Shown one piece after another: positions 3,338 to 63,996 of a stretch of DNA of 64,000 nucleotides. A model generated the notes under the pieces. That model ran no database searches. It was not told the origin of the DNA and worked only from the letters and a program-made list of their open reading frames with translations. Source of the stretch: Burkholderiales bacterium (GTDB taxonomy: Bacteria; Pseudomonadota; Gammaproteobacteria; Burkholderiales; SG8-39); NCBI GenBank assembly GCA_049582045.1, contig JBAUTD010000559.1, positions 11,720 through 75,719 on the forward strand. Reading direction: 5' to 3'. The first letter of the stretch is position 1. Every line of letters begins with the position of its first letter. A program made the position numbers and the translations under genes.

Positions 3338-3772
3338 ATGGGGGCGATCGCCGGCGTAGTGGAGCCCGCCGTGGCGGGGCTGGGTTTTGAGCTGGTCGAC
3401 ACCCAGGTGTCGAGCAGAGGGCGGATGGTGCGCGTTTTCATCGACAAGCCGGGAGGCGTGTCGGTGGACGATTGCGCCGACGTCAGCCACCACCTGACGC
3501 GTGTTTTCGCGGTCGAGGGGATTGATTTCGACCGCCTCGAGGTTTCTTCGCCGGGCCTCGATCGGCCGCTGCGCAAGGCCGCGGACTTTGCGCGGTTCGC
3601 CGGTCAGAAGGTGGATGTGCGTATGCGGGCGCCGGACGCGAGCGGCAGACGCCGCTTCGTCGGAACGCTGCAGGAAACGACGGGCGAGGTCGTGACGGTA
3701 GTCGTCGACGGCCAGGCGATTGAGTTGAGTCTCGCAGGCATGGAACGGGCGCGGCTAGTTCCGGACTTGTGA
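3338..3772 (+). CDS. rimP: ribosome maturation factor RimP
   Basis: 'VEPAVAGLGFELVD', 'VDDCADVSHHL' and 'LEVSSPGLDRPL' match the RimP pattern. The track ORF start (TTG 3275) would include the terminator hairpin, so ATG 3338 was chosen. Confidence 0.9.
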   Translation: MGAIAGVVEPAVAGLGFELVDTQVSSRGRMVRVFIDKPGGVSVDDCADVSHHLTRVFAVEGIDFDRLEVSSPGLDRPLRKAADFARFAGQKVDVRMRAPDASGRRRFVGTLQETTGEVVTVVVDGQAIELSLAGMERARLVPDL

Positions 3773-3790
3773 GTAATTTGGAGATATTCA

Positions 3791-5305
3791 ATGAGTCGTG
3801 AAATTCTGCTTCTTGTGGATGCCCTGGCGCGAGAGAAGAACGTCAATCGCGACGTTGTATTTGCGGCGCTGGAAATGGCGCTTGCCTCGGCCACCAAGAA
3901 GCGCTTCAGCGACGACGTCGAGGTGCGGGTCGCGATCGATCGCAACACCGGGAACTACGAATCGTTCAGGCGCTGGAAGGTGGTCCCGGACGACGTGCTG
4001 GAAATTCCGGCAGCGCAGATCACACTGTCTGAGGCGCAAGGGCGTAACCCCGAGCTCAAGCTCGACGACTACGTGGAAGAAGCGCTCGAACCGATCGAGT
4101 TCGGCCGCATCGGGGCGCAGACAGCCAAGCAGGTGATTCTGCAGCGCATTCGCGATGCAGAGCGGGAGCAGATTCTGAACGACTTCCTCTCGCGAGGCGA
4201 TGAACTGGTCACCGGCACTGTGAAGCGGATGGAGCGCGGCAGCGCAATCGTCGAGTCGGGGCGGCTAGAGGCGCTGCTGCCGCGTGATCAGATGATTCCA
4301 AAGGAAAACCTGCGCATTGGAGATCGGGTCAGGGCCTGGGTGATGAAGATCGACCGGGGCGCGCGCGGGCCGCAACTCATACTCTCGCGCACGGCCCCGC
4401 AATTCATCATGAAGCTATTCGAGCTCGAAGTTCCGGAAATCGAGGAAGGCTTGCTGGAAATCAAGTCTGCCGCGCGCGATCCGGGGATTCGGGCAAAGAT
4501 CGGCGTGCATTCGAACGACAAGCGCATCGACCCCATCGGCACATGCGTGGGCATGCGAGGCTCGCGCGTGCAGGCCGTCACGCAGGAATTGGCGGGCGAA
4601 CGGGTCGACATCGTGCTTTGGTCTGCGGATCCGGCGCAATTCGTGATAGGTGCGCTGGCGCCCGCGGAAGTATCGTCGATCGTGGTGGATGAAGAAAAGC
4701 ATGCAATGGATGTCGTGGTGGATGAGGAGAATCTCGCCATCGCAATCGGCCGCAGCGGACAGAACGTGCGGCTCGCCTCGGAGCTTACGGCATGGCAGAT
4801 CAACTTGATGACGGAGGAAGAGTCGGCCACCAAGCAGGCCGAGGAAAGCGGTCGTACGCGCAATCTGTTCATCGAGCGACTCGACGTCGATGAGGAGGTC
4901 GCCGACATCCTGATTCAGGAAGGTTTCTCGACGCTGGAGGAAATTGCGTACGTGCCGATCAACGAGTTGCTCGAAATCGAGGCGTTTGACGAGGACACCG
5001 TCAACGAGCTTCGCAATCGCGCACGCAACGCACTGCTGGTCGCGGCGATCGCGAACGAGGAGAAAGTCGAGGGAGTGGCCGCGGACCTTCTCCAGCTGGA
5101 GGGCATGGATACCCAACTGGCCGCCAAGCTTGCGGAGGGCGGCGTGAAGACGCGCGATGATCTCGGCGATCTCGCAGTCGACGAGCTTGCGGAGCTCAGC
5201 GGGATCGACGAGGAGCGCGCGAAGACCTTGATCATGGCGGCGCGTGCGCACTGGTTCGCGGACGAACCCGCCACGGGTGAGGCAGAGCACAAGGAGGTTC
5301 AGTAA
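3791..5305 (+). CDS. nusA: transcription termination/antitermination factor NusA
   Basis: 504 aa with N-terminus '[18 protein letters not shown]', S1/KH region and an acidic C-terminal repeat region. It sits in the conserved rimP-nusA-infB order. Confidence 0.96.
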
Positions 5306-26093: not shown

Positions 26094-26160
26094 GGGCAAA
26101 CGGTTCGGCTATACTCATCAGGTTTAGCATTCGCTAATATACATGCATGAGGAGGGAAAT

Positions 26161-26529
26161 ATGGCCGACAAGCTTATGATCGTGATGGTGAACACCGACC
26201 CGCGGGACCCTGCCGAACTCGGTGCGCCGTTCTTTCAGGCGACCGTGGCAGCCGCCATGGAGTACGAGGTCGAGGTGGTGCTCACGGGACGCGCGGGCGA
26301 ACTCGCAGTCAAGGGCGTCGCAGAGAAGCTGCACGTCAAGGAAGGTTCGCCCAAGAGTGTTTACGATTTCATGAAGGACGCCCATGAAGCTGGCGTCAAG
26401 TTCAAAGTCTGCACCCCCACGCTTGAGTTGTGGGGCGAGGATCTCATTCCCGAGATCGAGGAAACGGTTGGCGGCGCGTACGTGATCTCGCAGGCGATGG
26501 ACGACGACGTGGTGACTTTCACCTACTGA
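26161..26529 (+). CDS. DsrE/DsrF-like family small protein (function unknown)
   Basis: 122 aa: 'KLMIVMVNTD...PFFQATVAAAMEYEVEVVLTGRAG', single Cys in 'KFKVCTPT'. Strong SD GAGGAGGG (26149-26156) precedes ATG 26161. Confidence 0.7.
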   Translation: MADKLMIVMVNTDPRDPAELGAPFFQATVAAAMEYEVEVVLTGRAGELAVKGVAEKLHVKEGSPKSVYDFMKDAHEAGVKFKVCTPTLELWGEDLIPEIEETVGGAYVISQAMDDDVVTFTY

Positions 26530-26531
26530 GA

Positions 26532-27080
26532 ATGCGCGATCCAGCGCAGGCTTGGGCCTTCCTCGAGGACTCCGACCGGATAGCGAGCGCCGACGATGTG
26601 CAGGCGGCCGTTCGTCGCGTCGCCGGAGAGGTCAACGGCAGCCTCTGCGAGGCTTACCCGCTTGTTCTGCTGGTGATGGCCGGGGCCGTGGTTTTCGCGG
26701 GACAGCTCTTACCGCTGCTTCATTTTCCGCTGGATCTGGACTATGTTCATGCCTCGCGCTATGGCGACAAGACAGCCGGGGGAACCCTTGAATGGCGTGT
26801 GGCGCCCCCTGTGGGCGTGCGAGGTCGCACTGTGCTGCTGCTGGACGACATCCTCGACGGCGGAACGACGCTGCTCGCGATTCGCGATCGGCTGCGCGAA
26901 GAGGGTGCGACGCGGGTGCTCAGTGCGGTACTGGTAGAGAAGGTGCTGGCTGGCGGCAGACCGATCGCGGCGGACTTCGTTGGACTTAGGATTCCCGACC
27001 GTTTCGTATTCGGCTGCGGGATGGACGCGAAGGGCTACTGGCGCAATCTTCCGGAGATCCGCGCCATGAAGAGGACCTGA
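26532..27080 (+). CDS. hpt: hypoxanthine(-guanine) phosphoribosyltransferase
   Basis: PRPP-binding motif 'VLLLDDILDGGTTL'. ATG 26532 lies 2 nt after the upstream stop. The track start at 26430 overlaps the DsrE-like gene and was rejected. Confidence 0.88.
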   Translation: MRDPAQAWAFLEDSDRIASADDVQAAVRRVAGEVNGSLCEAYPLVLLVMAGAVVFAGQLLPLLHFPLDLDYVHASRYGDKTAGGTLEWRVAPPVGVRGRTVLLLDDILDGGTTLLAIRDRLREEGATRVLSAVLVEKVLAGGRPIAADFVGLRIPDRFVFGCGMDAKGYWRNLPEIRAMKRT

Positions 27081-27817
27081 TGCTGGCGATTATCGGTGGC
27101 AGCGGCCTGTCACAGTTGGGAAACCTGAAGATAGAGCTGCGCAAGGTGGCCCGCACTCCGTACGGGGAGCCTTCGGGGCCGCTCACTTTCGGGCGCGTCG
27201 GCGGGCGCGACGTGGTTTTTCTCGCACGCCACGGCTACGGTCACACGGTCGCGCCGCACGAGGTCAATTACCGCGCGAATCTGTGGGCCTTGAAGGAAGA
27301 GGGAGTCGCGGGCGTCGTGTCGGTGGCATCCGTAGGCGGCATCCGCAAGGATCTGGGGCCCGGCGCGTTGGTACTTCCGGACCAGATCATCGACTACACC
27401 TGGGGCCGTGGATCGACCTTTTTCGAAGGAGCAGATGCGCCCGTGACGCACATCGACTTCACGGAGCCTTATTCGTCCTCCCTAAGGCAACGCATCCTTG
27501 ACGCCGCAAAGTCGTGCCGAGAGCCGGTGGCGGACGGAGCCGTGTATGCCGCGACGCAGGGTCCGCGCTTGGAGACGGCGGCGGAGATCAATCGCATGGA
27601 GCGCGACGGGGCTGACGTGGTGGGCATGACAGGCATGCCCGAAGCGGTGCTCGCGCGCGAACTCGGCCTGGAGTACGCGGCGATTGCGGTGGTCGCGAAC
27701 TACGCGGCAGGCCGCGGGGACAGTGCGCGGGGCGTTTCACTTGAGCGCATCGGCGCGGTACTTGACGAGGCAATGGGCCGCGTGCGCAAGATCATCGAGC
27801 ACTTGGCGGGCGGATGA
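27080..27817 (+). CDS. mtnP: S-methyl-5'-thioadenosine / S-methyl-5'-thioinosine phosphorylase (MtnP family)
   Basis: 245 aa: 'LAIIGGSGL', 'FLARHG.GH...[14 protein letters not shown]', '[15 protein letters not shown]'. The start shares 1 nt with the hpt stop (TGATG). Confidence 0.88.
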
Positions 27818-28344
27818 TCCGCGAAGTGCTCAAGATGGGCAATCCGTCGCTACTGACGGTTGCGACTTCGGTGGAGCGCTTCGGTACGCCGGAGCTGGAT
27901 GCGCTGCTGACCGATATGCGAGAAACGATGGCGCACCTTGATGGCGCCGGGCTCGCGGCGCCCCAGATCGGCGTCGGTCTGCGCGTCGTGATATTCGGCG
28001 TGAAACGAAATCCGCGCTATCCCGGGGTGGAGGAGGTGCCCGATACGGTCCTGATAAACCCGATCATCGAACCCCTTGCCCCCGAGATGGAGGAAGGCTG
28101 GGAGGGATGTCTGTCGGTACCGGGCATGCGTGGCCTCGTACCGCGTTACGCCAGGCTTCGGTATTCAGGGCGCGATGAGCACGGCACGCCCATTCAGCGG
28201 GTGGCGGAAGGATTTCATGCGCGCGTTGTCCAGCATGAGTGCGATCACCTCGACGGAATTCTCTATCCGATGCGGATAAGGGATTTGAGAAACTTCGGAT
28301 TCATCGACGCCATATTCCCGGACGAAGAGCTGCCACCCGAGTAG
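27814..28344 (+). CDS. def: peptide deformylase
   Basis: Motifs '[10 protein letters not shown]', 'EGCLSVPG' and 'HECDHLDG'. There is a 4-nt overlap with mtnP. Confidence 0.95.
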
Positions 28345-56002: not shown

Positions 56003-56896
56003 TCAGCCGCCCAGGAACAGGCGGCCGACTTCGGGGTTCTGCAGCAGGTCGTCGCCCGTGCCGGCCAGCGCCAGCTGACCGGAGACAAGCACGTATCCCA
56101 GATCGGCGAACTCGAGGCCTTTCTTCGCGTTCTGCTCGACCATGAGGATGGTCTTGCCTTCGCGGTGCTGGAGGTCGTGCAGGATCTCGAACACCATGTC
56201 GATGAAGCGAGGCTCGAGGCCGATCGACGGTTCGTCGACCAGCAGCACGTCGGGTTCCATCACCAGGGCGCGGGAAATCTCGAGCAAGCGCCGCTCGCCG
56301 CCCGAGAGGACCTTGGCGGCGTGATGTCGGCGCGCAGCCAGGCGATCGTACTTGTCGAATACACGCTCCGCGGCGGCCTTTGCCTTTGCGTGGGAGTGCA
56401 GCAGGTATCCTCCCATTAACAGATTTTCCTCGACTGTCATGTTCGGGAACACGGACTTGTCCTGCAGGATGTAAGCGACTCGCGCCTCCTTCAGCTTGCG
56501 ATCAGAGGTGAGGTGCGTGATGTTACGCTTGTCGCTGCCTTGTCCGACGGTGATCTCCCCGCCATAGATCCGGGTAAATCCGTAGACGGAATGCAGTATG
56601 GTCGACTTGCCGGCTCCATTTGGCCCGATCAGGCATAGCGACTGCGCCCGTGCGACGTGCAGCGTGAAGTCGTGCAGGATTTCCATGTTGCCGTAGCCCG
56701 CACGCAGATTCCGGATCGAAAGGAACGGCTCATTGCCGGCCAGCGCGATCAGATTCGACTCGGGAATTTCGGAGCGCAGTTCCTCGGCCTGGCGTGCGAC
56801 GTCGTCGACGGACAGGACGACGTCCACCGAACCTTCGTGATAGCCCCCGGCAAGCGTAGTCTCCTTCGCCACGTCAGTGCGCTCCCAGGTAGGCAT
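56003..56896 (-). CDS. ABC transporter ATP-binding protein, LivF-like, with N-terminal extension
   Basis: Walker A 'GPNGAGKST', signature 'LSGGERRLLEISRA', Walker B 'LLVDEPSIG'. The start is ATG 56896 or GTG 56827. There is no canonical start near the core beginning at 'FLSIRNL'. Confidence 0.88.
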   Translation of the reverse strand: MPTWERTDVAKETTLAGGYHEGSVDVVLSVDDVARQAEELRSEIPESNLIALAGNEPFLSIRNLRAGYGNMEILHDFTLHVARAQSLCLIGPNGAGKSTILHSVYGFTRIYGGEITVGQGSDKRNITHLTSDRKLKEARVAYILQDKSVFPNMTVEENLLMGGYLLHSHAKAKAAAERVFDKYDRLAARRHHAAKVLSGGERRLLEISRALVMEPDVLLVDEPSIGLEPRFIDMVFEILHDLQHREGKTILMVEQNAKKGLEFADLGYVLVSGQLALAGTGDDLLQNPEVGRLFLGG

Positions 56897-57620
56897 CGAT
56901 CACACGCTGATCGTCGCGGATCTGCGCCGGCGTACCGCTTGCGAGCAATTCCCCGTGAGACATGCAGTAGATATGGTTCGCAAGGTTCATGATGACACGC
57001 ATGTTGTGCTCGATCACGAACAGTGTGATGCCGAATTCCTGGTTGGCGCGCTTGAGGCGGTCGATCAGGCCGTTAATCAGGGTCGGATTGATCCCGGCCG
57101 TTGGCTCGTCGAGCAGCAGCACCTTCGGTTCGTTCATGAGCGCCATTGCGAACTCGAGCAGCTTCTGCTGACCGAAGGACAGCGAACCGGCGACCAGCAT
57201 ACGTTTGGAATAGAGTCCAACGAACTCGAGCAATCGTTCGGCTTTATCGCTCACCTCGCGCGGATAGCGTCCGAACATGTTCTGCCAGGCATGTTCCCGG
57301 TGCGGTAGTGAAATCAGCAAATTCTGGATGCAGTCCATCTTCGCGAAAATGCGCGTCTGCTGGAAGGTGCGCAGCATTCCGAGCCGTGCAATCTGCTGCA
57401 CCGAGAGATGCGAGATTTCCCGCCCCTCGAACTGGATCGATCCCGCGTCGATCGGATGTTGGCCGACGATCGAGTTGAACAAGGTAGTCTTGCCCGAACC
57501 GTTCGGGCCGATCAGCCCGGTGATTCCGCCGGGCTCGACCTTGAGCGAGACATTCTGGTTGGCGACCACGCCACCGAACGCTTTGGTGACGTTACGCACT
57601 TCGATGATCGCTTCGCTCAT
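56874..57620 (-). CDS. ABC transporter ATP-binding protein, LivG-like
   Basis: 'IIEVRNVTKAFGG', Walker A 'GPNGSGKTT', 'LSFGQQKLLEFA' and 'LLLDEPTAG'. ATG 57620 overlaps the permease stop (ATGA). The track start at 57980 was rejected. Confidence 0.92.
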   Translation of the reverse strand: MSEAIIEVRNVTKAFGGVVANQNVSLKVEPGGITGLIGPNGSGKTTLFNSIVGQHPIDAGSIQFEGREISHLSVQQIARLGMLRTFQQTRIFAKMDCIQNLLISLPHREHAWQNMFGRYPREVSDKAERLLEFVGLYSKRMLVAGSLSFGQQKLLEFAMALMNEPKVLLLDEPTAGINPTLINGLIDRLKRANQEFGITLFVIEHNMRVIMNLANHIYCMSHGELLASGTPAQIRDDQRVIDAYLGAH

Positions 57621-58657
57621 GGCTTGCCGGCAGCCTTGGGCTCGGTTTCGACGCGCACGCCGAACCACTCGGGCTTGCGGTCCCGCAACCATCCCAAGAT
57701 TCCCTGCTGGAAGTAGACCACGTTGACGATGATAAGCACGCCAAGCGCGATGTACTGCCAGCCGAGCAGGTAAGTCCAGGTCAGCTCGCGCAAGGCGTAG
57801 AACAGCGTGGCACCGACGATCGGCCCCCAGAGCGTTCCTTTGCCCCCGAGCAACGCCATCGCGATCATAAAGATCCCGAAAGTAAGCGTGGGGTAGGCGG
57901 TTTCCAGAGGCTCGATGAATCCCGTCATATTTCCGAATAGCGCGCCAGCGATTCCGAGGAAGAATGCCGACACGGACCACGCAACCATCTTGTAGCGTCC
58001 GGTGTGCAGTCCAAGCGCCTCAGCCTTGTCCTCGTCATCTCGGATCGCGTTGATCGCCAGGCTGAAGCGCGTGCTGTAGAGCCAGCGTAGGAACAGGTAA
58101 CAGAGAACGGCTGCCAGCATGCATGCGCCGTAGAAGAATCTCTCTCGCATCCCGGGGCCGCCCGGGAACACTGGCATTGCGATTCCGCTGCCTCCGCCGA
58201 CCCAGCCCCAGGCACTGGTGAGTTCGGCCGCCGCGATGGCGACTCCAAGCGTGCCTATGGCGAAGTAGGGGCCGCGCAACCCGAACAGGATCCAGCTCAG
58301 GATGGCGGCCAAGATCATTGGCAGGATCGCAGCCAGGAGCACACCTAGCGCGAGACCGGTGTAGTACTGCTGATCGGTGAAATCGACCTTGATCGCGCCG
58401 GTGGCGGCGGTGTATTCGCCGACGTTGTACACGAGGGCGATCTGCACGATCGCGCAGATGTACATCCCGAAGCCGAAAAAGGTGATATTTCCCAGTGAGT
58501 TGTAACCCATCTGGCCGCCCATCGTGTCCCAGGTCTGCGCGAACAGCACGAAAATCCAGAAAATCGCGAACTGAACCGTATGCGCGGGAAACGCGAAGGG
58601 TGCCGCAATTCCGGCGGCAAGCAGGACGAGGTGGAGCGCGAGCGATTTTCGGGTCAT
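57617..58657 (-). CDS. branched-chain-amino-acid-type ABC permease, LivM-like
   Basis: 346 aa, multi-TM, with 'GQMGYNSLGNITFFGFGMY'. ATG 58657 overlaps the livH-like stop (ATGA). The upstream 299 aa of the track ORF run out of frame across livH. Confidence 0.88.
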   Translation of the reverse strand: MTRKSLALHLVLLAAGIAAPFAFPAHTVQFAIFWIFVLFAQTWDTMGGQMGYNSLGNITFFGFGMYICAIVQIALVYNVGEYTAATGAIKVDFTDQQYYTGLALGVLLAAILPMILAAILSWILFGLRGPYFAIGTLGVAIAAAELTSAWGWVGGGSGIAMPVFPGGPGMRERFFYGACMLAAVLCYLFLRWLYSTRFSLAINAIRDDEDKAEALGLHTGRYKMVAWSVSAFFLGIAGALFGNMTGFIEPLETAYPTLTFGIFMIAMALLGGKGTLWGPIVGATLFYALRELTWTYLLGWQYIALGVLIIVNVVYFQQGILGWLRDRKPEWFGVRVETEPKAAGKP

Positions 58658-59556
58658 TGGAGCGCCATCCGGTGGCGGCGCAATAGCGTTTGGCGCCAGA
58701 TGAGGATGATCAGCAGCAGGCCGACGACGGTTGCCTGCTGGAACTGGGCGCCCAGCACGAAGCCGCTGTACTGCTCTACCACTCCAAGGCCGAGCGCGGT
58801 CACGATCACGGCAGGAAAATTGCCCAACCCAGCCGCGGTCACGATGACGAACGCGCGCACGGAGTAGGCGATGCCGTAGAACGGCTGGATCACCCAGATC
58901 ATGGCAATGATCACTCCCGCCACGCCGCAAATCGCCGAGTTGATCGAGAACGTAAGCGCGTAGACCAGGTCTGTATTGACTCCGAGCACACGTGCCGCGC
59001 GCGGATCCTGAGCGGTCGCCCGAATCGCCTGACCCATCCGGCTCTTCCTCAGAAACAGGACCATGGCCACTGCCAGCACCGCGCACATCCCGAACGCAAT
59101 GACCCGGATCTGCGTAATGTCTACCATGCCGCCGAACATCTCGAACCGGCCGAAGCCGGACTTGAGCGTGCGCACATCGGGGCCGAATACCAGGTTCATC
59201 ACCTGTTGCATGGTGATTGCAAGACCGAACGTCGCGAGCAACGAGGTGAACAGGTCGAGCTGGATCACGCGACGGATGATCAGCTTGTAAATGAGCCAGC
59301 CGTAGCCGAACATCAGCGCGGCCACCGGCACGATCGCCACGATCGGGTGGATGCCGTGGCGCGACAGCTCGTAGCCGAGATAGCCGCCCAGCATCACGAA
59401 GTCGCCCTGGGCGAGGTTCTTGACGCTCGTCACGCCCCAGACCAGCGCAAGGCCGTAGGCGGCGAGGGCGAATACCGCCCCGATACTCAGGCCATTCAGC
59501 CACAGTTGAAGGTTGAATACCGGCGCGGTGCCGAGTATTTGAAGATTGTCCCACAT
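58654..59556 (-). CDS. branched-chain-amino-acid-type ABC permease, LivH-like
   Basis: 300 aa, multi-TM, with 'LNGLSIGAVFALAAYGLALVWG' and 'NLAQGDFVMLGGY'. Confidence 0.9.
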   Translation of the reverse strand: MWDNLQILGTAPVFNLQLWLNGLSIGAVFALAAYGLALVWGVTSVKNLAQGDFVMLGGYLGYELSRHGIHPIVAIVPVAALMFGYGWLIYKLIIRRVIQLDLFTSLLATFGLAITMQQVMNLVFGPDVRTLKSGFGRFEMFGGMVDITQIRVIAFGMCAVLAVAMVLFLRKSRMGQAIRATAQDPRAARVLGVNTDLVYALTFSINSAICGVAGVIIAMIWVIQPFYGIAYSVRAFVIVTAAGLGNFPAVIVTALGLGVVEQYSGFVLGAQFQQATVVGLLLIILIWRQTLLRRHRMALQ

Positions 59557-59566
59557 GAACGCAATC

Positions 59567-59591
59567 GCGCCGGCCCTGCGAGGGCCGGCGC
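59567..59591 (-). promoter_or_regulatory. intercistronic GC-rich hairpin between binding-protein and permease genes
   Basis: GCGCCGGCCCT-GCG-AGGGCCGGCGC: an 11-bp perfect stem with a 3-nt loop and no U-tract, inside the 67-nt gap. Confidence 0.6.
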
Positions 59592-59623
59592 GCCTAGGCT
59601 ACGTTAAGCAACGAAACGAGCGC

Positions 59624-60862
59624 TTACATCGGCGCTTTGCGCGGGTACACCACCGGCTCGGAGGCGTACTTGGTCGGCGCCACCACGACGTACTTGCCGT
59701 CCTGGATCTGGCGCAGCACCATCGGCTTGGCGATGTTGTTGCCTTCCGCGCTGAACTTGATGTTGCCGTAGAACGTTTGCATGTCGGTCGCAGCGAGCGC
59801 ATCACGCAGCTTCTCGGTATCGAAGCTCTGCGCCCGGCGGAACGCGTCAGCCCAGATCTCGATGACCGCCGAGGCTTGCGCAACCTGGTAGGGAACGATC
59901 TTGTACTCCTTGTGTGCGGCAAGGAACGCCTTGTTGAAGTCCATGGCCGTACCGAACACGTTGTCTTTGTACTTGAGCGTTTCGGCCCACTGAGTCGGGC
60001 AGAGGATGCCCTCGGACGCCGCGCCGAACTGGGAAGTCAGTTTGGCCGATTCACAGTGAGTCATGGCGACGATAGACGCGTTGACGCCCAGCTCCTTCAT
60101 TTGTCGCGCCGCAGTCGTTGCACCTTTCGTGTGTCCCGAAAACGCGAGGATGTCAGGCCTGAGGGCCTTGACCTTCGTGAGCGTGGCTGAGATGTCGCTC
60201 AAGTCGCGCGGCATCTTGTCGTCGACAACGATCTTCATGCCGTACTTCTTGGCCTCGTCGACGACCCCTTGCCGCACGTCGAGGGAGAACGGGTCGTTCT
60301 CGAACGCCATCCCGATCTTCAGATCGCTCGGATTCTTGCCGCTCTTCTGAGCCAGTTCCGCGGCGAGTTCGATGACCGGTGACAGGTACTGATCGGACGT
60401 CGAAAGGGCCGCGAACATGTAGCGATAGCCCTGCGTAAAGAGTGAGCGCGACGCTCCTTCAGCCTCAACCATCGGAATCTTGTACTTCTCGGTCACCGGC
60501 GCTGCCGCCTTGGTGGGGCCGGAGCCGTATGGGCCGAGAATGTACTTGATGCCGTCCTGGTTGATGATTCGCTCCAGGAGCTGAGCCGTACGGGCGGGAG
60601 TCGACTCGTCGTCGTAATACTTGACGGCCAGCTTGTAGGTCTTGCCGTTGATCTTGACGCCGCCCATCTCGTTGATGCGCTTGACGCCGAAGTTGTAGCC
60701 GTCGCTGGCGTTCTTGCCTTCCTGCGAGTACTTACCGGTGATCGAGATCGCCGAGCCGAGCGTGATCGTATCTTCCGCCGAGGCCTGGCCGGAAAACGCT
60801 AACGCAGCCGCGACGGCCGCTGCGCCTGTCAGGCGCGCAGTCTTAGAGCATAGAACCTTCAT
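59624..60862 (-). CDS. ABC transporter periplasmic substrate-binding protein (type 1 PBP, Leu/Ile/Val-binding family-like)
   Basis: Signal peptide 'MKVLCSKTARLTGAAAVAAALAFSGQASA' followed by 'ITLGSAISITGKYS'. SD AAGGAGG lies 5 nt before ATG 60862. The track start at 60943 was rejected. Confidence 0.88.
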   Translation of the reverse strand: MKVLCSKTARLTGAAAVAAALAFSGQASAEDTITLGSAISITGKYSQEGKNASDGYNFGVKRINEMGGVKINGKTYKLAVKYYDDESTPARTAQLLERIINQDGIKYILGPYGSGPTKAAAPVTEKYKIPMVEAEGASRSLFTQGYRYMFAALSTSDQYLSPVIELAAELAQKSGKNPSDLKIGMAFENDPFSLDVRQGVVDEAKKYGMKIVVDDKMPRDLSDISATLTKVKALRPDILAFSGHTKGATTAARQMKELGVNASIVAMTHCESAKLTSQFGAASEGILCPTQWAETLKYKDNVFGTAMDFNKAFLAAHKEYKIVPYQVAQASAVIEIWADAFRRAQSFDTEKLRDALAATDMQTFYGNIKFSAEGNNIAKPMVLRQIQDGKYVVVAPTKYASEPVVYPRKAPM

Positions 60863-60988: not shown

Positions 60989-61996
60989 TCAGCTGCCGCG
61001 AGCCCTGCGGGACAGCAGGGCCGTAACGGTGGCGCGAGATGGTGAGCGCAACACTTCGACTTCGGTGATAAGTCCGGTGACCAGCTCCGCGGGCGTAACG
61101 TCGAATGCGGGGTTTCGCACCGATACGCCCTCGGGTGCCCAGCGCGATCCGCGGTATCCCGTCACCTCGTCCGCAGGGCGTTCCTCGATCGGGATCGACG
61201 CGCCCTGCGCAATTGCGGGGTCGAAGGTCGACAGTGGCGCCGCGACGTAGAACGGCAGTCCGTGTCGCCGGGCGAGAACCGCCAGCGTGTAGGTCCCGAT
61301 CTTGTTGGCGACGTCGCCGTTGGCCGCAATGCGATCGGCGCCTACGATCAGCATGTCGACTTCACCGCGGTTCATCAGAAAGCCCGCCATGTTGTCGGTC
61401 ACCAGCGTAACGGGGATGCGCTCCTGCACCATTTCCCAGGCCGTCAAACGCGCCCCCTGCAGATACGGGCGGGTTTCATTGGCGACGACCGAGATGCGCT
61501 TACCCTGGTCGCGCGCCGAGCGCACCACGCCGAGCGCGGTGCCGTGGCCCGCGGTCGCGAGCGCCCCCGCGTTGCAGTGAGTCATGATGCGTGCGCCGTC
61601 GGCAACCAGGGCCGCGCCGCGCGCACCGATCGCCCGGTTGACCGCGAGATCCTCCTCGTAAATGGCGAGCGCTTCGTGTTCGAGGGCGGAGGCACCCCCT
61701 CGCGCCATTGCCTGGCGCATGCGCGCAAGTGCCCAGAAGAGATTCACCGCGGTGGGCCGGCTGTGCGCGAGCGCATCGAACGCCGCCTCCAACGCCGCGG
61801 GACGCGCGGACTCGAGCGCAATGCCGAAGGCGGCGGCGCAACCGATCGCCGGGGCCCCGCGAATTACCATGTCGCGGATCGCGCGCGCCGTATCGCCGGC
61901 GGTACGGCAAGTCAGGTATTCGATCTTCTCCGGCAACGCGCGCTGGTCGAGCAGCTCCAGCGTCTTGCCGGTCCAGCGCAGGGTGTCGACGCCCAT
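60989..61996 (-). CDS. mtnA: S-methyl-5-thioribose-1-phosphate isomerase
   Basis: 335 aa: 'LELLDQRALP', 'MVIRGAPAIG' and 'VGADRIAANGDVANKIGTY'. ATG 61996 shares 1 nt with the upstream stop. The 471-aa track ORF was trimmed. Confidence 0.9.
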   Translation of the reverse strand: MGVDTLRWTGKTLELLDQRALPEKIEYLTCRTAGDTARAIRDMVIRGAPAIGCAAAFGIALESARPAALEAAFDALAHSRPTAVNLFWALARMRQAMARGGASALEHEALAIYEEDLAVNRAIGARGAALVADGARIMTHCNAGALATAGHGTALGVVRSARDQGKRISVVANETRPYLQGARLTAWEMVQERIPVTLVTDNMAGFLMNRGEVDMLIVGADRIAANGDVANKIGTYTLAVLARRHGLPFYVAAPLSTFDPAIAQGASIPIEERPADEVTGYRGSRWAPEGVSVRNPAFDVTPAELVTGLITEVEVLRSPSRATVTALLSRRARGS

Positions 61997-63966
61997 CAGA
62001 CCACGCGCTCGTTGCCGCCGTCGACCGGAATCTGCGCGCCCGTGGTTTTCGCGAACAGCGGCCCGCACAACTCCGCGGCGAGCTCGGCCACGTCCCTCGA
62101 CGCAACTTCGGTCCGTAGGAGGTTGTTGCGCTTGTACTGCTCGACGCTGAGCTTGTAGGCCGCGGCCCGCGCGGCCAGCAGCTCGTCGGTCCACAGCGCG
62201 GTGTCGTATACCGCGTTGGGATGCAGCGAGTTGACGCGAATGCCGTCCTTGCCCCATTCGAGCGCCGCCACTCGCGCCAACTGATTGAGCGCGGCCTTGG
62301 AGGCCGAATAGGCCGCGGCGCCGGGACCCGGTGCCGGAACGTTCTTGGAGCCGATCACCACGATGCGTCCACCGCGCGGCGAGGTCTTCATCAGCGCATG
62401 GCACGCCTGCATGACGTTCAGGTTGGCTTCGACATTTATCGCCATTGTGCTGTGCCAGGTCTGAGCCGAGATGTCCTGGATCGGCTGCGACGAAGGAAAG
62501 ATGCCTGCGTTCAGCACCAGCATGTCAATGCCGCCGTAACGCTTCACGGCATTGCACAGCGCCGCGTCGACCGCGTGCGCGTCGGTGACGTCGCAGGCAA
62601 TTCCGGCGAAATCCGGGCGCGTCCACATGGTTTCGATTGCAAGGTTGCGATCGAGTCCCACGACGGCCGCACCTCGCTTCAAGAACGCCTCGACGCAGGC
62701 CTTTCCGATCCCCGAGGCGGCGCCGGTCACCAGCGCGACTTCGCCGGCGAACAGCGGCGGCGCGCCCGCCTTGCGCAGCTTCGCCTGCTCCAGATCCCAG
62801 TACTCGATGTCGAAGACGTCGCGCTCGCCGACCGCCTGCCAACCGCCCAGCAACTCGGCGCGCAGGATGACGTCGATCGTGTGGTCGTAGAGCTCCTCGA
62901 TGATCGCAGCATCTCGTGCCGTTCGGCCGGCCGCGGCAAACCCCAGCGTCGGGTCCAGCGCCATGCGCGGCGCGGGGTCCAGCATGGTCTTGTTCTCTTT
63001 CGCCCGCGCGGCATTGCGCTCGAAATAGTCGCGGTAGCCGCGTGCGTATGCCTGCACGTCGAATCCGAGCATTGGCAAAGGCTTGGTGCGAATCACGTGA
63101 TCCGGTGTTGCCGGCCCGCGCTGCGAAAGGCGGCCGAGCTCCGGGTGCTGCGCGAACGAGAGGAATTTGGGCGAATCGTTAACTTTGAGAATCATGGGTG
63201 CGCCGGCGAGGTCCGAAATCGCACGCCGCAATCCGGCAATTGCCTCGCGCGAGGCAGTCGCCGGCTGCGCCGCTGGCGGGCTCACGTTCCATGCCTTGTT
63301 CGCCGCGAGATAGTCCTCGGCCATCGACACGAGCCTGATCATGCGCTCGTAGGACTCCCTGGCGTCGGCCCCGAACGAGAATACGCCGTGCGACAGCAGC
63401 ACCATGCCGATGGTCCGCGGGCCCGCGTGGGTGGCGAACTCGCGCGCGCAATGGGCCGCGAGATCGAATCCGGCCATGATGTAGGGGATGACCACGACCA
63501 GGTCGCCGTAGATCTCTCGCACGCGCTGCTCGCCGCGCGGCGCGTTGCTGATCGAAAGCACCGCGTCGGCGTGGGTGTGGTCGACGTAGGCGTGCGGCAG
63601 GATCGCGTGCAGGATCGTCTCGACGGAGGGCGAGGGCGCGCCCGCGCGCAGCGTGTGCGTGTTCAACTCGTTGACCATCTGCGGATCGGACAGCGCGGAC
63701 AGCTGCGCCAGGCGCCGGACGTAATCGAGCGCAACGGGAGTGAACCCGGCGGCCTCGATCGTCTCGAGATCCCATCCGCTGCCTTTCACATAGAGCACGT
63801 CGTCAGACGTGCCAAAGAGGTTTGTCTCGCGCAGTTTTACCGAAGTGTTTCCCCCGCCGTGAAGGACGAGCGTCCGGTCCGTTCCCAACAGCCGAGACGT
63901 GTAGACCCGCGGGCCGAGCGGGCCTGAATACCGCGCTGCTTCGGAATCGTTCCAGAGACTGCGCAT
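61996..63966 (-). CDS. bifunctional class II aldolase/adducin-domain protein fused to short-chain dehydrogenase/reductase
   Basis: N-terminal 'LHGGGNTSVK', 'VKGSGWDL' and 'HAYVDHTHADAV'. C-terminal SDR with 'ALVTGAASGIGKA', 'LNAGI' and 'YSASKAAL'. 656 aa. Confidence 0.88.
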   Translation of the reverse strand: MRSLWNDSEAARYSGPLGPRVYTSRLLGTDRTLVLHGGGNTSVKLRETNLFGTSDDVLYVKGSGWDLETIEAAGFTPVALDYVRRLAQLSALSDPQMVNELNTHTLRAGAPSPSVETILHAILPHAYVDHTHADAVLSISNAPRGEQRVREIYGDLVVVIPYIMAGFDLAAHCAREFATHAGPRTIGMVLLSHGVFSFGADARESYERMIRLVSMAEDYLAANKAWNVSPPAAQPATASREAIAGLRRAISDLAGAPMILKVNDSPKFLSFAQHPELGRLSQRGPATPDHVIRTKPLPMLGFDVQAYARGYRDYFERNAARAKENKTMLDPAPRMALDPTLGFAAAGRTARDAAIIEELYDHTIDVILRAELLGGWQAVGERDVFDIEYWDLEQAKLRKAGAPPLFAGEVALVTGAASGIGKACVEAFLKRGAAVVGLDRNLAIETMWTRPDFAGIACDVTDAHAVDAALCNAVKRYGGIDMLVLNAGIFPSSQPIQDISAQTWHSTMAINVEANLNVMQACHALMKTSPRGGRIVVIGSKNVPAPGPGAAAYSASKAALNQLARVAALEWGKDGIRVNSLHPNAVYDTALWTDELLAARAAAYKLSVEQYKRNNLLRTEVASRDVAELAAELCGPLFAKTTGAQIPVDGGNERVV

Positions 63967-63990: not shown

Positions 63991-63996
63991 ATTATA
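63991..63996 (-). promoter_or_regulatory. candidate -10 hexamer for the aldolase-SDR/mtnA operon
   Basis: The minus strand reads TATAAT, 25 nt upstream of ATG 63966. The -35 region would lie outside the window. Confidence 0.35.

Follow-up and report, generated by a model that had tools for sequence, protein, structure and literature searches.

The DNA analysed here is a stretch of 64,000 nucleotides (nt) from a Burkholderiales bacterium (contig JBAUTD010000559.1; the whole stretch is hereafter the window). On the minus strand near its right-hand end lies a gene for a two-enzyme fusion protein, a class II aldolase joined to a short-chain dehydrogenase (SDR), which is followed directly by mtnA, the gene for S-methyl-5-thioribose-1-phosphate isomerase (Table 1). 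The TGA stop codon of the fusion gene (61998-61996) and the ATG start codon of mtnA (61996-61994) have one A in common, and this overlap points to translational coupling of the two genes. The mtnA product scores 424.2 bits against TIGR00512 salvage_mtnA (cutoff 279), 438 bits against NF004326 and 273 bits against Pfam IF-2B. A preliminary description of this DNA had recognised a 656-residue open reading frame (ORF) with an N-terminal class II aldolase and a C-terminal SDR, the shared base at the junction and the downstream mtnA. All of this is borne out by our analysis: Pfam sets the domain borders at residues 22-219 and 410-651, and every motif quoted in that description is present.

Table 1. 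Features of the fusion-mtnA locus and of the nucleoside phosphorylase locus in the window (aa, amino acid residues of the encoded protein)
Feature	Position	Strand	Extent	Assignment
Aldolase/short-chain dehydrogenase fusion gene	61996..63966	(-)	656 aa	NCBIfam NF006196
Class II aldolase domain	63310..63903	(-)	aa 22-219	Pfam PF00596, 70.3 bits
Conserved middle region	62767..63291	(-)	aa 226-400 (175 aa)	conserved columns
Classical SDR domain	61999..62751	(-)	aa 406-656	Pfam adh_short, adh_short_C2
TGATG junction, fusion stop / mtnA start	61994..61998	(-)		read from sequence
mtnA, S-methyl-5-thioribose-1-phosphate isomerase	60989..61996	(-)	335 aa	hidden Markov model matches
TATAAT hexamer, possible -10 box	63991..63996	(-)	24 nt upstream of fusion ATG	
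S-methyl-5'-thioinosine/-adenosine phosphorylase	27080..27817	(+)	245 aa	NF006599, TIGR01694
hpt, hypoxanthine-guanine phosphoribosyltransferase	26532..27080	(+)		NF006605, 238 bits (cutoff 181)

The fusion belongs to NF006196, "bifunctional aldolase/short-chain dehydrogenase" (PRK08324.2-4), a family without an assigned substrate: its score is 1042.6 bits (cutoff 831), with residues 1-656 lying on profile positions 1-657 of 657. Its score against TIGR02632 RhaD_aldol-ADH, the model for the rhamnose-catabolic fusion RhaEW, is 455.6 bits and falls below the cutoff of 567.75, whereas true members of that family, two of the more distant fusions that we scored, reach 981 bits (L017) and 752 bits (L019). 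Among the matches listed, the 120 closest homologs are 656-664 residues long and have the same Pfam content as our fusion. Seven of the homologs that we scored exceed the NF006196 cutoff, and they come from Holophagales, an unclassified proteobacterium, Micromonospora, Pseudomonadales, Bacteroidetes, a Gammaproteobacterium and Pseudanabaena. Taken alone, the aldolase domain gives strong matches only to models of fusion families, and a profile search of the Protein Data Bank (PDB) with the N-terminal 400 residues returned one clear relative, 3m4r (E = 5e-76). By these sequence comparisons the aldolase domain is of the RhaE type of class II and remote from MtnB, FucA, classical RhaD and Ald2/DrdA, the distance from Ald2/DrdA being judged from scores of family models and PDB profiles rather than from direct comparison with Ald2/DrdA sequences.

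We found that the association of such fusions with mtnA reaches far beyond this window. Fusion loci were gathered from species-representative genomes (25 loci, about 25 of the best 80) and from metagenomes (80 loci); since a full-length genome scan was swamped by generic SDRs, the metagenome scan used the aldolase and middle region only. The NF006196 set comprises 90 related loci, 72 of which could be assessed for mtnA. At 59 of these 72 loci no more than 200 nt separate mtnA from the fusion gene; the genomes account for 5 of them (of 9 that could be assessed) and the metagenomes for 54 (of 63). At 4 further loci mtnA is found within 3.2 kb. The paired loci include Betaproteobacteria, a Gammaproteobacterium, Micromonospora and a metagenome-assembled genome (MAG) of Bacteroidetes. 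The pairing, seen in 59 of 72 loci and in at least four phyla or classes, is therefore far beyond chance. Where mtnA is directly downstream of the fusion gene, stop and start codons overlap in 30 of 57 loci. Gene order is not fixed: mtnA follows the fusion gene in the proteobacterial loci but precedes it in those of Micromonospora (L005) and Bacteroidetes (L007). In these last two loci identity to the window proteins is only 46-54% for the fusion and 41-48% for MtnA, so that the pairing is either ancient or has arisen more than once. In a neighbour-joining tree, mtnA-linked loci run from the deepest branches of NF006196 to its crown.

The remaining neighbours point in the same direction as mtnA. 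Two loci (L154 and L151) have the order fusion-mtnP-apt-mtnA, and a third (L142) has fusion-x-mtnP-apt-HAD-mtnA. Only three families recur in the flanks of 19 diverse NF006196 loci, namely MtnA (6), the phosphorylase of S-methyl-5'-thioadenosine (MTA) (3) and Apt (3); rhamnose isomerase, kinase, mutarotase and transporter genes are not among them. By contrast, mtnA is found in none of 15 more distant fusion loci (31-45% identity); among their flanking ORFs, L-rhamnose isomerase and rhamnulokinase are matched 6 times each. Thus the neighbourhood survey suggested by the preliminary description yielded orthologs that occur with mtnA, at times with mtnP and apt, and rhamnose clusters only around sister subfamilies; the TIGR02632 and NF006196 scores above likewise place our fusion outside the rhamnose-specific family.

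Some further observations concern these neighbourhoods. In L151, the gene of a B12-binding radical SAM (S-adenosylmethionine) enzyme, at 3446-4981 (+), ends 20 nt upstream of the fusion gene; since enzymes of this kind produce 5'-deoxyadenosine, this neighbour, a single case, would fit a role in 5'-deoxyadenosine disposal. At L025 (Pseudanabaena), L003, L004, L006, L153, L159 and L160 no mtnA lies within 3-8 kb, and the Pseudanabaena fusion gene is preceded by a small ORF that is RidA-like as read by eye. All-versus-all clustering of flanking ORFs was set aside: antisense ORFs, frequent in high-GC DNA, interfered with it, and the clusters reflected mainly lineage synteny (ygfZ-like, tadA) instead of functional partners.

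The catalytic residues of both enzymes are intact and conserved in the fusion. The aldolase domain exceeds the PF00596 threshold of 22.2 bits, covers profile positions 5-182 of 183, and contains the motifs GGGNTSVK (residues 37-44), VKGSGWDL (60-67) and HAYVDHTHADAV (125-136). We predict H130, H132 and H193 as its metal ligands, E116 as its catalytic acid/base, and GGGNTS (37-42) and GSG (62-64) as its phosphate-binding loops; E116, the three histidines and both loops are kept across the NF006196 and RhaEW clades. The FucA-like chain 2opi aligns with the fusion at E116 and H193, and the spacing of H132 and H193 (61 residues) equals that of H94 and H155 in E. coli FucA. The SDR part (residues 410-651) scores 159 bits against adh_short and 155.8 bits against adh_short_C2, and carries the motifs TGAASGIGKA (414-423), NAGI (486-489) and YSASK (553-557). 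It has the signature of a classical SDR, namely TGxxxGxG (T414-G421), N486-G488 and the catalytic residues N511, S540, Y553 and K557. The catalytic residues are invariant in the family, as is Asp439 at the end of strand beta-2, from which a preference for NAD(H) is predicted. Its closest relatives among SDRs of solved structure are N-acylmannosamine 1-dehydrogenase, sorbitol dehydrogenases and sulfoquinovose 1-dehydrogenase.

Between the two enzymes lies a middle region (residues 226-400) that no Pfam model matches. Its family motifs are RGPATPDHVIRTK at 283-295 and EYWDLEQAKL at 388-397, with G284, T287-H290, K295 and E388-L397 as invariant columns; the motifs GPATPDHVIRTK and EYWDLEQAKL rank among the most conserved of the superfamily. 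The region may serve in oligomerisation, in substrate transfer or in the active site. This region is also the best part of our AlphaFold2 model, with block values of the predicted local distance difference test (pLDDT) of 85-96 over most of residues 210-370, and Foldseek searches with the model returned 3m4r and generic SDRs as the sole matches. A Campylobacterales MAG (L016, 957-2153, +) encodes a 398-residue protein that consists of a RhaE-type aldolase and the middle region without the SDR, which shows that the middle region is evolutionarily tied to the aldolase half. A 474-residue ORF next to that gene, checked as an aldehyde dehydrogenase that might replace the SDR, has no Pfam match.

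At the promoter side, L001, a homolog with 88% identity on a contig of 899 kb, has a divergently transcribed GNAT gene upstream of the fusion gene, which makes the fusion the first gene of the operon. The TATAAT hexamer upstream of the fusion gene is kept in three relatives, and reads GTATAAT at an equal distance in L001 and L082. Because the window ends upstream of the hexamer and the -35 region falls outside it, a consensus scan yields no full promoter. Rfam elements, such as a riboswitch for SAM or S-adenosylhomocysteine, were found near the fusion gene in none of 13 diverse loci.

Downstream of mtnA, at a distance of 126 nt and on the same strand, are five genes of a Liv-type ABC transporter (56003-60862, -), comprising a substrate-binding protein that weakly resembles LivK or UrtA, two permeases and two ATPases, and no terminator is predicted between mtnA and these genes. 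The transporter follows mtnA only in relatives at least 85% identical (L001, L082 and L083), and we therefore rejected it as a part of the module.

The other genes of the window were listed using GC content at third codon positions (GC3), and the few ORFs of unclear identity were scanned with Pfam. This list contains no rhamnose genes and, as the preliminary description had noted, no genes like mtnB, mtnC or mtnD in the 64,000 nt; it consists of housekeeping genes, the Liv-type transporter and a pair made up of hpt and a phosphorylase of S-methyl-5'-thioinosine (MTI). The phosphorylase, absent from the preliminary description, is 34 kb from the fusion gene and unlinked to it; it scores 390.8 bits against NF006599 (cutoff 223) and 283.8 bits against the MTA phosphorylase model TIGR01694 (cutoff 274.85). 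The NF006605 match of hpt begins at ORF residue 39, and the hpt stop codon overlaps the phosphorylase start. With hpt and the phosphorylase in the window, the organism can make 5-methylthioribose-1-phosphate (MTR-1-P) and recycle the released base, and we infer that this phosphorylase is the source of MTR-1-P for MtnA. Since a hypoxanthine phosphoribosyltransferase is paired with an MTI-type phosphorylase, the arrangement suggests that MTA is first deaminated to MTI and then phosphorolysed, as in Pseudomonas aeruginosa. Of additional note, hpt, the phosphorylase and a peptide deformylase gene form a packed run (26532-28344, +) with stop/start overlaps at 27080 and 27814-27817, a gene for a DsrE/DsrF-like protein of 128 residues (26143-26529, +) lies directly upstream of hpt, and the pair of hpt and MTI-type phosphorylase parallels the mtnP-apt pairs of L142, L151 and L154.

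Based on these findings, we propose that the fusion and MtnA probably make up a module that disposes of the ribose moiety of MTA or MTI, a reading of the sequence in which we place moderate confidence and which amounts to a variant of the dihydroxyacetone phosphate (DHAP) shunt with a RhaE-type aldolase. The module probably also serves the ribose moiety of 5'-deoxyadenosine. From the recurrence of the pairing in distant bacteria it follows that the fusion probably cleaves the sugar processed by MtnA and converts the resulting aldehyde. In the proposed scheme, a nucleoside phosphorylase, here the MTI-type enzyme paired with hpt, would release MTR-1-P or 5-deoxyribose-1-phosphate, which MtnA would isomerise to the ketose-1-phosphate. 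The Zn-type aldolase domain (E116, H130, H132, H193) would then carry out a retro-aldol cleavage to DHAP and either 2-(methylthio)acetaldehyde or acetaldehyde, and the NAD-type SDR domain (D439; N511-S540-Y553-K557) would convert the aldehyde immediately. In the form that we favour, by analogy with RhaEW, the hydrated aldehyde would be oxidised to (methylthio)acetate or acetate with formation of NADH. Coupling of the aldolase and SDR domains may be obligatory, as has been reported for RhaEW. It is the conserved genomic context that supports this module; the substrate, the cleavage chemistry, the redox direction and the domain coupling we infer.

Several points weigh against this proposal. Nine assessable NF006196 members, including those of Pseudanabaena and Holophagales, have no mtnA nearby, and the counts are not independent, as a single lineage of related, syntenic proteobacteria supplies most of the metagenome loci. 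Models of stand-alone aldolases, MtnB and RhaD give only 11-14 bits on the aldolase domain, and the PDB match next after 3m4r, a FucA-like chain, has E = 0.007. Judged by such scores, the domain is no ortholog of the aldolases proven to act on 5-methylthioribulose-1-phosphate (MTRu-1-P) or 5-deoxyribulose-1-phosphate. The AlphaFold2 model, built on a shallow alignment (78-90% identity), has a mean pLDDT of 68.8 with poor active-site loops. Oxidation of the aldehyde would moreover be a departure, since alcohols are the products that known shunts release in vivo. The independent evidence in favour consists of the recurrence of the pairing in four distant lineages with differing gene orders, together with the mtnP-apt insertions. 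The preliminary description had suggested a DHAP-shunt-type module, and the genomic context supports that suggestion. As the aldolase is a RhaE-type domain with only remote similarity to Ald2, DrdA and MtnB, it would be a non-orthologous replacement and not a fused Ald2.

As for the redox direction, if the module exists as proposed, we lean slightly towards the SDR oxidising the aldehyde to the acid, on analogy with the precedent of RhaEW, the conserved NAD-type Asp and the presence of hemiacetal C1 dehydrogenases (N-acylmannosamine, sulfoquinovose and glucose 1-dehydrogenases) among the closest SDR matches. Reduction to the alcohol, under the same premise, has a chance only a little below even. 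Taken as a whole, the idea that NF006196 represents an unrecognised, widespread oxidative DHAP shunt, in which cleavage of MTRu-1-P or 5-deoxyribulose-1-phosphate is followed by formation of (methylthio)acetate or acetate, is a tentative one. A somewhat doubtful but serious alternative keeps the same module and cleavage and makes the SDR a reductase, which would form 2-(methylthio)ethanol or ethanol with NADH and would be the missing alcohol dehydrogenase of the shunt. The characterised DHAP shunts do give alcohols in vivo (PMC5893883; PMC10986504; PMC13474568), alcohol/carbonyl pairs are the substrates of most SDRs, and the mtnA, mtnP and apt context fits a reductase equally well. However, the sole characterised members of the fusion superfamily oxidise their aldehyde with NAD+ and are inactive with NADH (PMC3870299), the NAD-type Asp439 is kept in both the NF006196 and RhaEW clades, and the kinship of several closest SDR relatives, hemiacetal C1 dehydrogenases whose reaction parallels the oxidation of an aldehyde hydrate, is at most suggestive of the acid.

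It is improbable that the fusion and mtnA serve another substrate stream or merely share regulation, with the isomerase acting on another ribose-1-phosphate derivative or the fusion on an unrelated ketose phosphate. Isomerases of the IF-2B family are indeed promiscuous, accepting 5-deoxyribose-1-phosphate and ribose-1,5-bisphosphate (PMC6079011), and some NF006196 members have no mtnA nearby; against this, the adjacent isomerases strongly pass the MtnA equivalog model, and the further genes of the clusters encode MTA phosphorylase and adenine phosphoribosyltransferase. Quite improbable, too, is a fusion that partners MtnA without being an aldolase, in which an MtnB-like dehydratase or an epimerase would feed a keto intermediate to the SDR in an undescribed salvage route. 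MtnB dehydratases do have the class II aldolase fold and its metal site (PMC6302742), the window is devoid of mtnB, mtnC and mtnD, and the link with mtnA, mtnP and apt is equally compatible, but the N-terminal domain scores only 13.1 bits against TIGR03328 salvage_mtnB (cutoff 137), the characterised relatives are all aldolases (PMC3870299), and aldol cleavage supplies a substrate for the SDR whereas no known step after dehydration requires one. Finally, although homologs are named for rhamnose utilization by JGI, architecture and catalytic residues match those of RhaEW and the TIGR02632 score still reaches 455 bits, it is very improbable that the fusion is a RhaEW ortholog for deoxyhexose catabolism (rhamnulose-1-phosphate or fuculose-1-phosphate) beside a meaningless mtnA, given that NF006196 is a far better match than the subthreshold TIGR02632, that rhamnose genes are absent from the window and from the recurrent flanking families of the 19 diverse NF006196 loci and present at true TIGR02632-type loci, and that linkage to mtnA is found again in several phyla, in differing gene orders.

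The proposed disposal module of fusion and MtnA would bear on a need common to all cells. MTA and 5'-deoxyadenosine are unavoidable and inhibitory by-products of SAM chemistry, so that every cell must dispose of them, and of the routes for doing so the DHAP shunt was the last to be recognised. As late as 2026 the enzyme that processes its aldehyde was described as unknown (PMC13474568). A fusion tied to mtnA, mtnP and apt offers a concrete, clonable candidate for both the aldolase and the aldehyde step. Our literature search found no report of an aldolase-SDR fusion in the metabolism of MTA or 5'-deoxyadenosine or as a partner of mtnA; an earlier notice in North et al. 2020, reportedly the main survey of DHAP-shunt gene clusters, is possible. 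The DHAP shunt, the Bacillus Drd pathway and the RhaEW fusion are already established, and what is probably new is a fused, non-orthologous version of the shunt tied to mtnA. If this is correct, the shunt has two separate origins in branches of the class II aldolase fold that lie far apart. Should the oxidative form be true, the missing aldehyde step would be identified for a large group of soil Burkholderiales, for scattered Actinomycetota, Bacteroidota and Gammaproteobacteria, and for others, and methylthioacetate is predicted as a new sulfur metabolite, the end product of MTA disposal. The finding also affects annotation: many metagenome and MAG proteins of the fusion family (at least 8000 family matches) are labelled "rhamnose utilization protein RhaD" in JGI, a label that is probably wrong for the NF006196 subfamily and that distorts reconstructions of how soil bacteria recycle sulfur and SAM. 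We regard the fusion-mtnA module as a well-founded candidate for an acknowledged gap, one that extends known logic rather than being a surprise.

Among the known systems, the one solved structure clearly homologous to the aldolase half is 3m4r, the N-terminal class II aldolase domain of a Thermoplasma acidophilum protein, which is 39% identical (E = 8e-46) and has the same motifs; it is an isolated domain of an uncharacterised archaeal protein, obtained by structural genomics and without a substrate complex. MtnB resembles the aldolase domain in its class II aldolase fold, and it acts on MTRu-1-P. Its fusions, MtnBD of Tetrahymena and DEP1 of Arabidopsis, are earlier examples of consecutive MTA-recycling steps joined in one protein (PMC6302742; PMC6079011), but MtnB catalyses a dehydration towards methionine and its fusion partners are a dioxygenase and a HAD phosphatase.

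The closest counterpart in build is RhaEW (B. subtilis YuxG and Chloroflexus aurantiacus Caur_2283; TIGR02632 / NF006189), a bifunctional L-rhamnulose-1-phosphate aldolase / L-lactaldehyde dehydrogenase. Both consist of a RhaE-type aldolase, the middle region and a classical NAD-type SDR, and H130, H132, H193, Asp439 and S540-Y553-K557 are all kept. In RhaEW, as predicted for our fusion, a ketose-1-phosphate is cleaved to DHAP and an aldehyde that is processed within one polypeptide. The Chloroflexus and Bacillus enzymes convert rhamnulose-1-phosphate to DHAP and lactate with NAD+, NADH being inactive, and without NAD+ they produce no DHAP; RhaEW orthologs are stated to be always in rha loci (PMC3870299). 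Our fusion differs in being only 31-32% identical to actinobacterial proteins of the RhaEW type and 34-38% identical to other fusions on the TIGR02632 side, and in its partners, which for NF006196 are mtnA, mtnP and apt, and for the RhaEW side are rhaA/rhaI, rhaB and sugar transporters. The positions that distinguish the clades include L35/N, A133/P, A135/S, M164/R and F198/W. At the position of residue 116 of our fusion, the actinobacterial RhaEW-type proteins L017 and L021 have Asp (PSIDT), and NF006196 and the other subfamilies have the presumed catalytic Glu (PSVET/SIET).

In its proposed chemistry the module recalls the DHAP shunt of Rhodospirillum rubrum, R. palustris and extraintestinal pathogenic E. 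coli, which is made up of MtnP or MtnN plus MtnK, followed by MtnA and Ald2, and the Bacillus 5-deoxyribose pathway of DrdK, DrdI and DrdA. The upstream enzymes, a phosphorylase and MtnA, are the same, the aldolase gene is clustered with the isomerase gene, and the predicted products of the fusion, DHAP with methylthioacetaldehyde or acetaldehyde, are those of the shunt. The route to the ribose-1-phosphate that a DHAP shunt requires would be supplied here by the phosphorylase at 27080-27817, and in L142, L151 and L154 by an MTA phosphorylase within the cluster. The systems differ in the aldolase, since that of the fusion is no ortholog of Ald2 or DrdA and is remote from stand-alone class II aldolases (about 210-220 residues for Ald2/DrdA). 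The aldehyde-converting enzyme is separate in the known shunts (PMC13474568) and would be fused to the aldolase in NF006196. Likewise, the known shunts release the alcohols 2-methylthioethanol and ethanol in vivo (PMC5893883; PMC10986504; PMC13474568), whereas the product of the fusion may be the acid.

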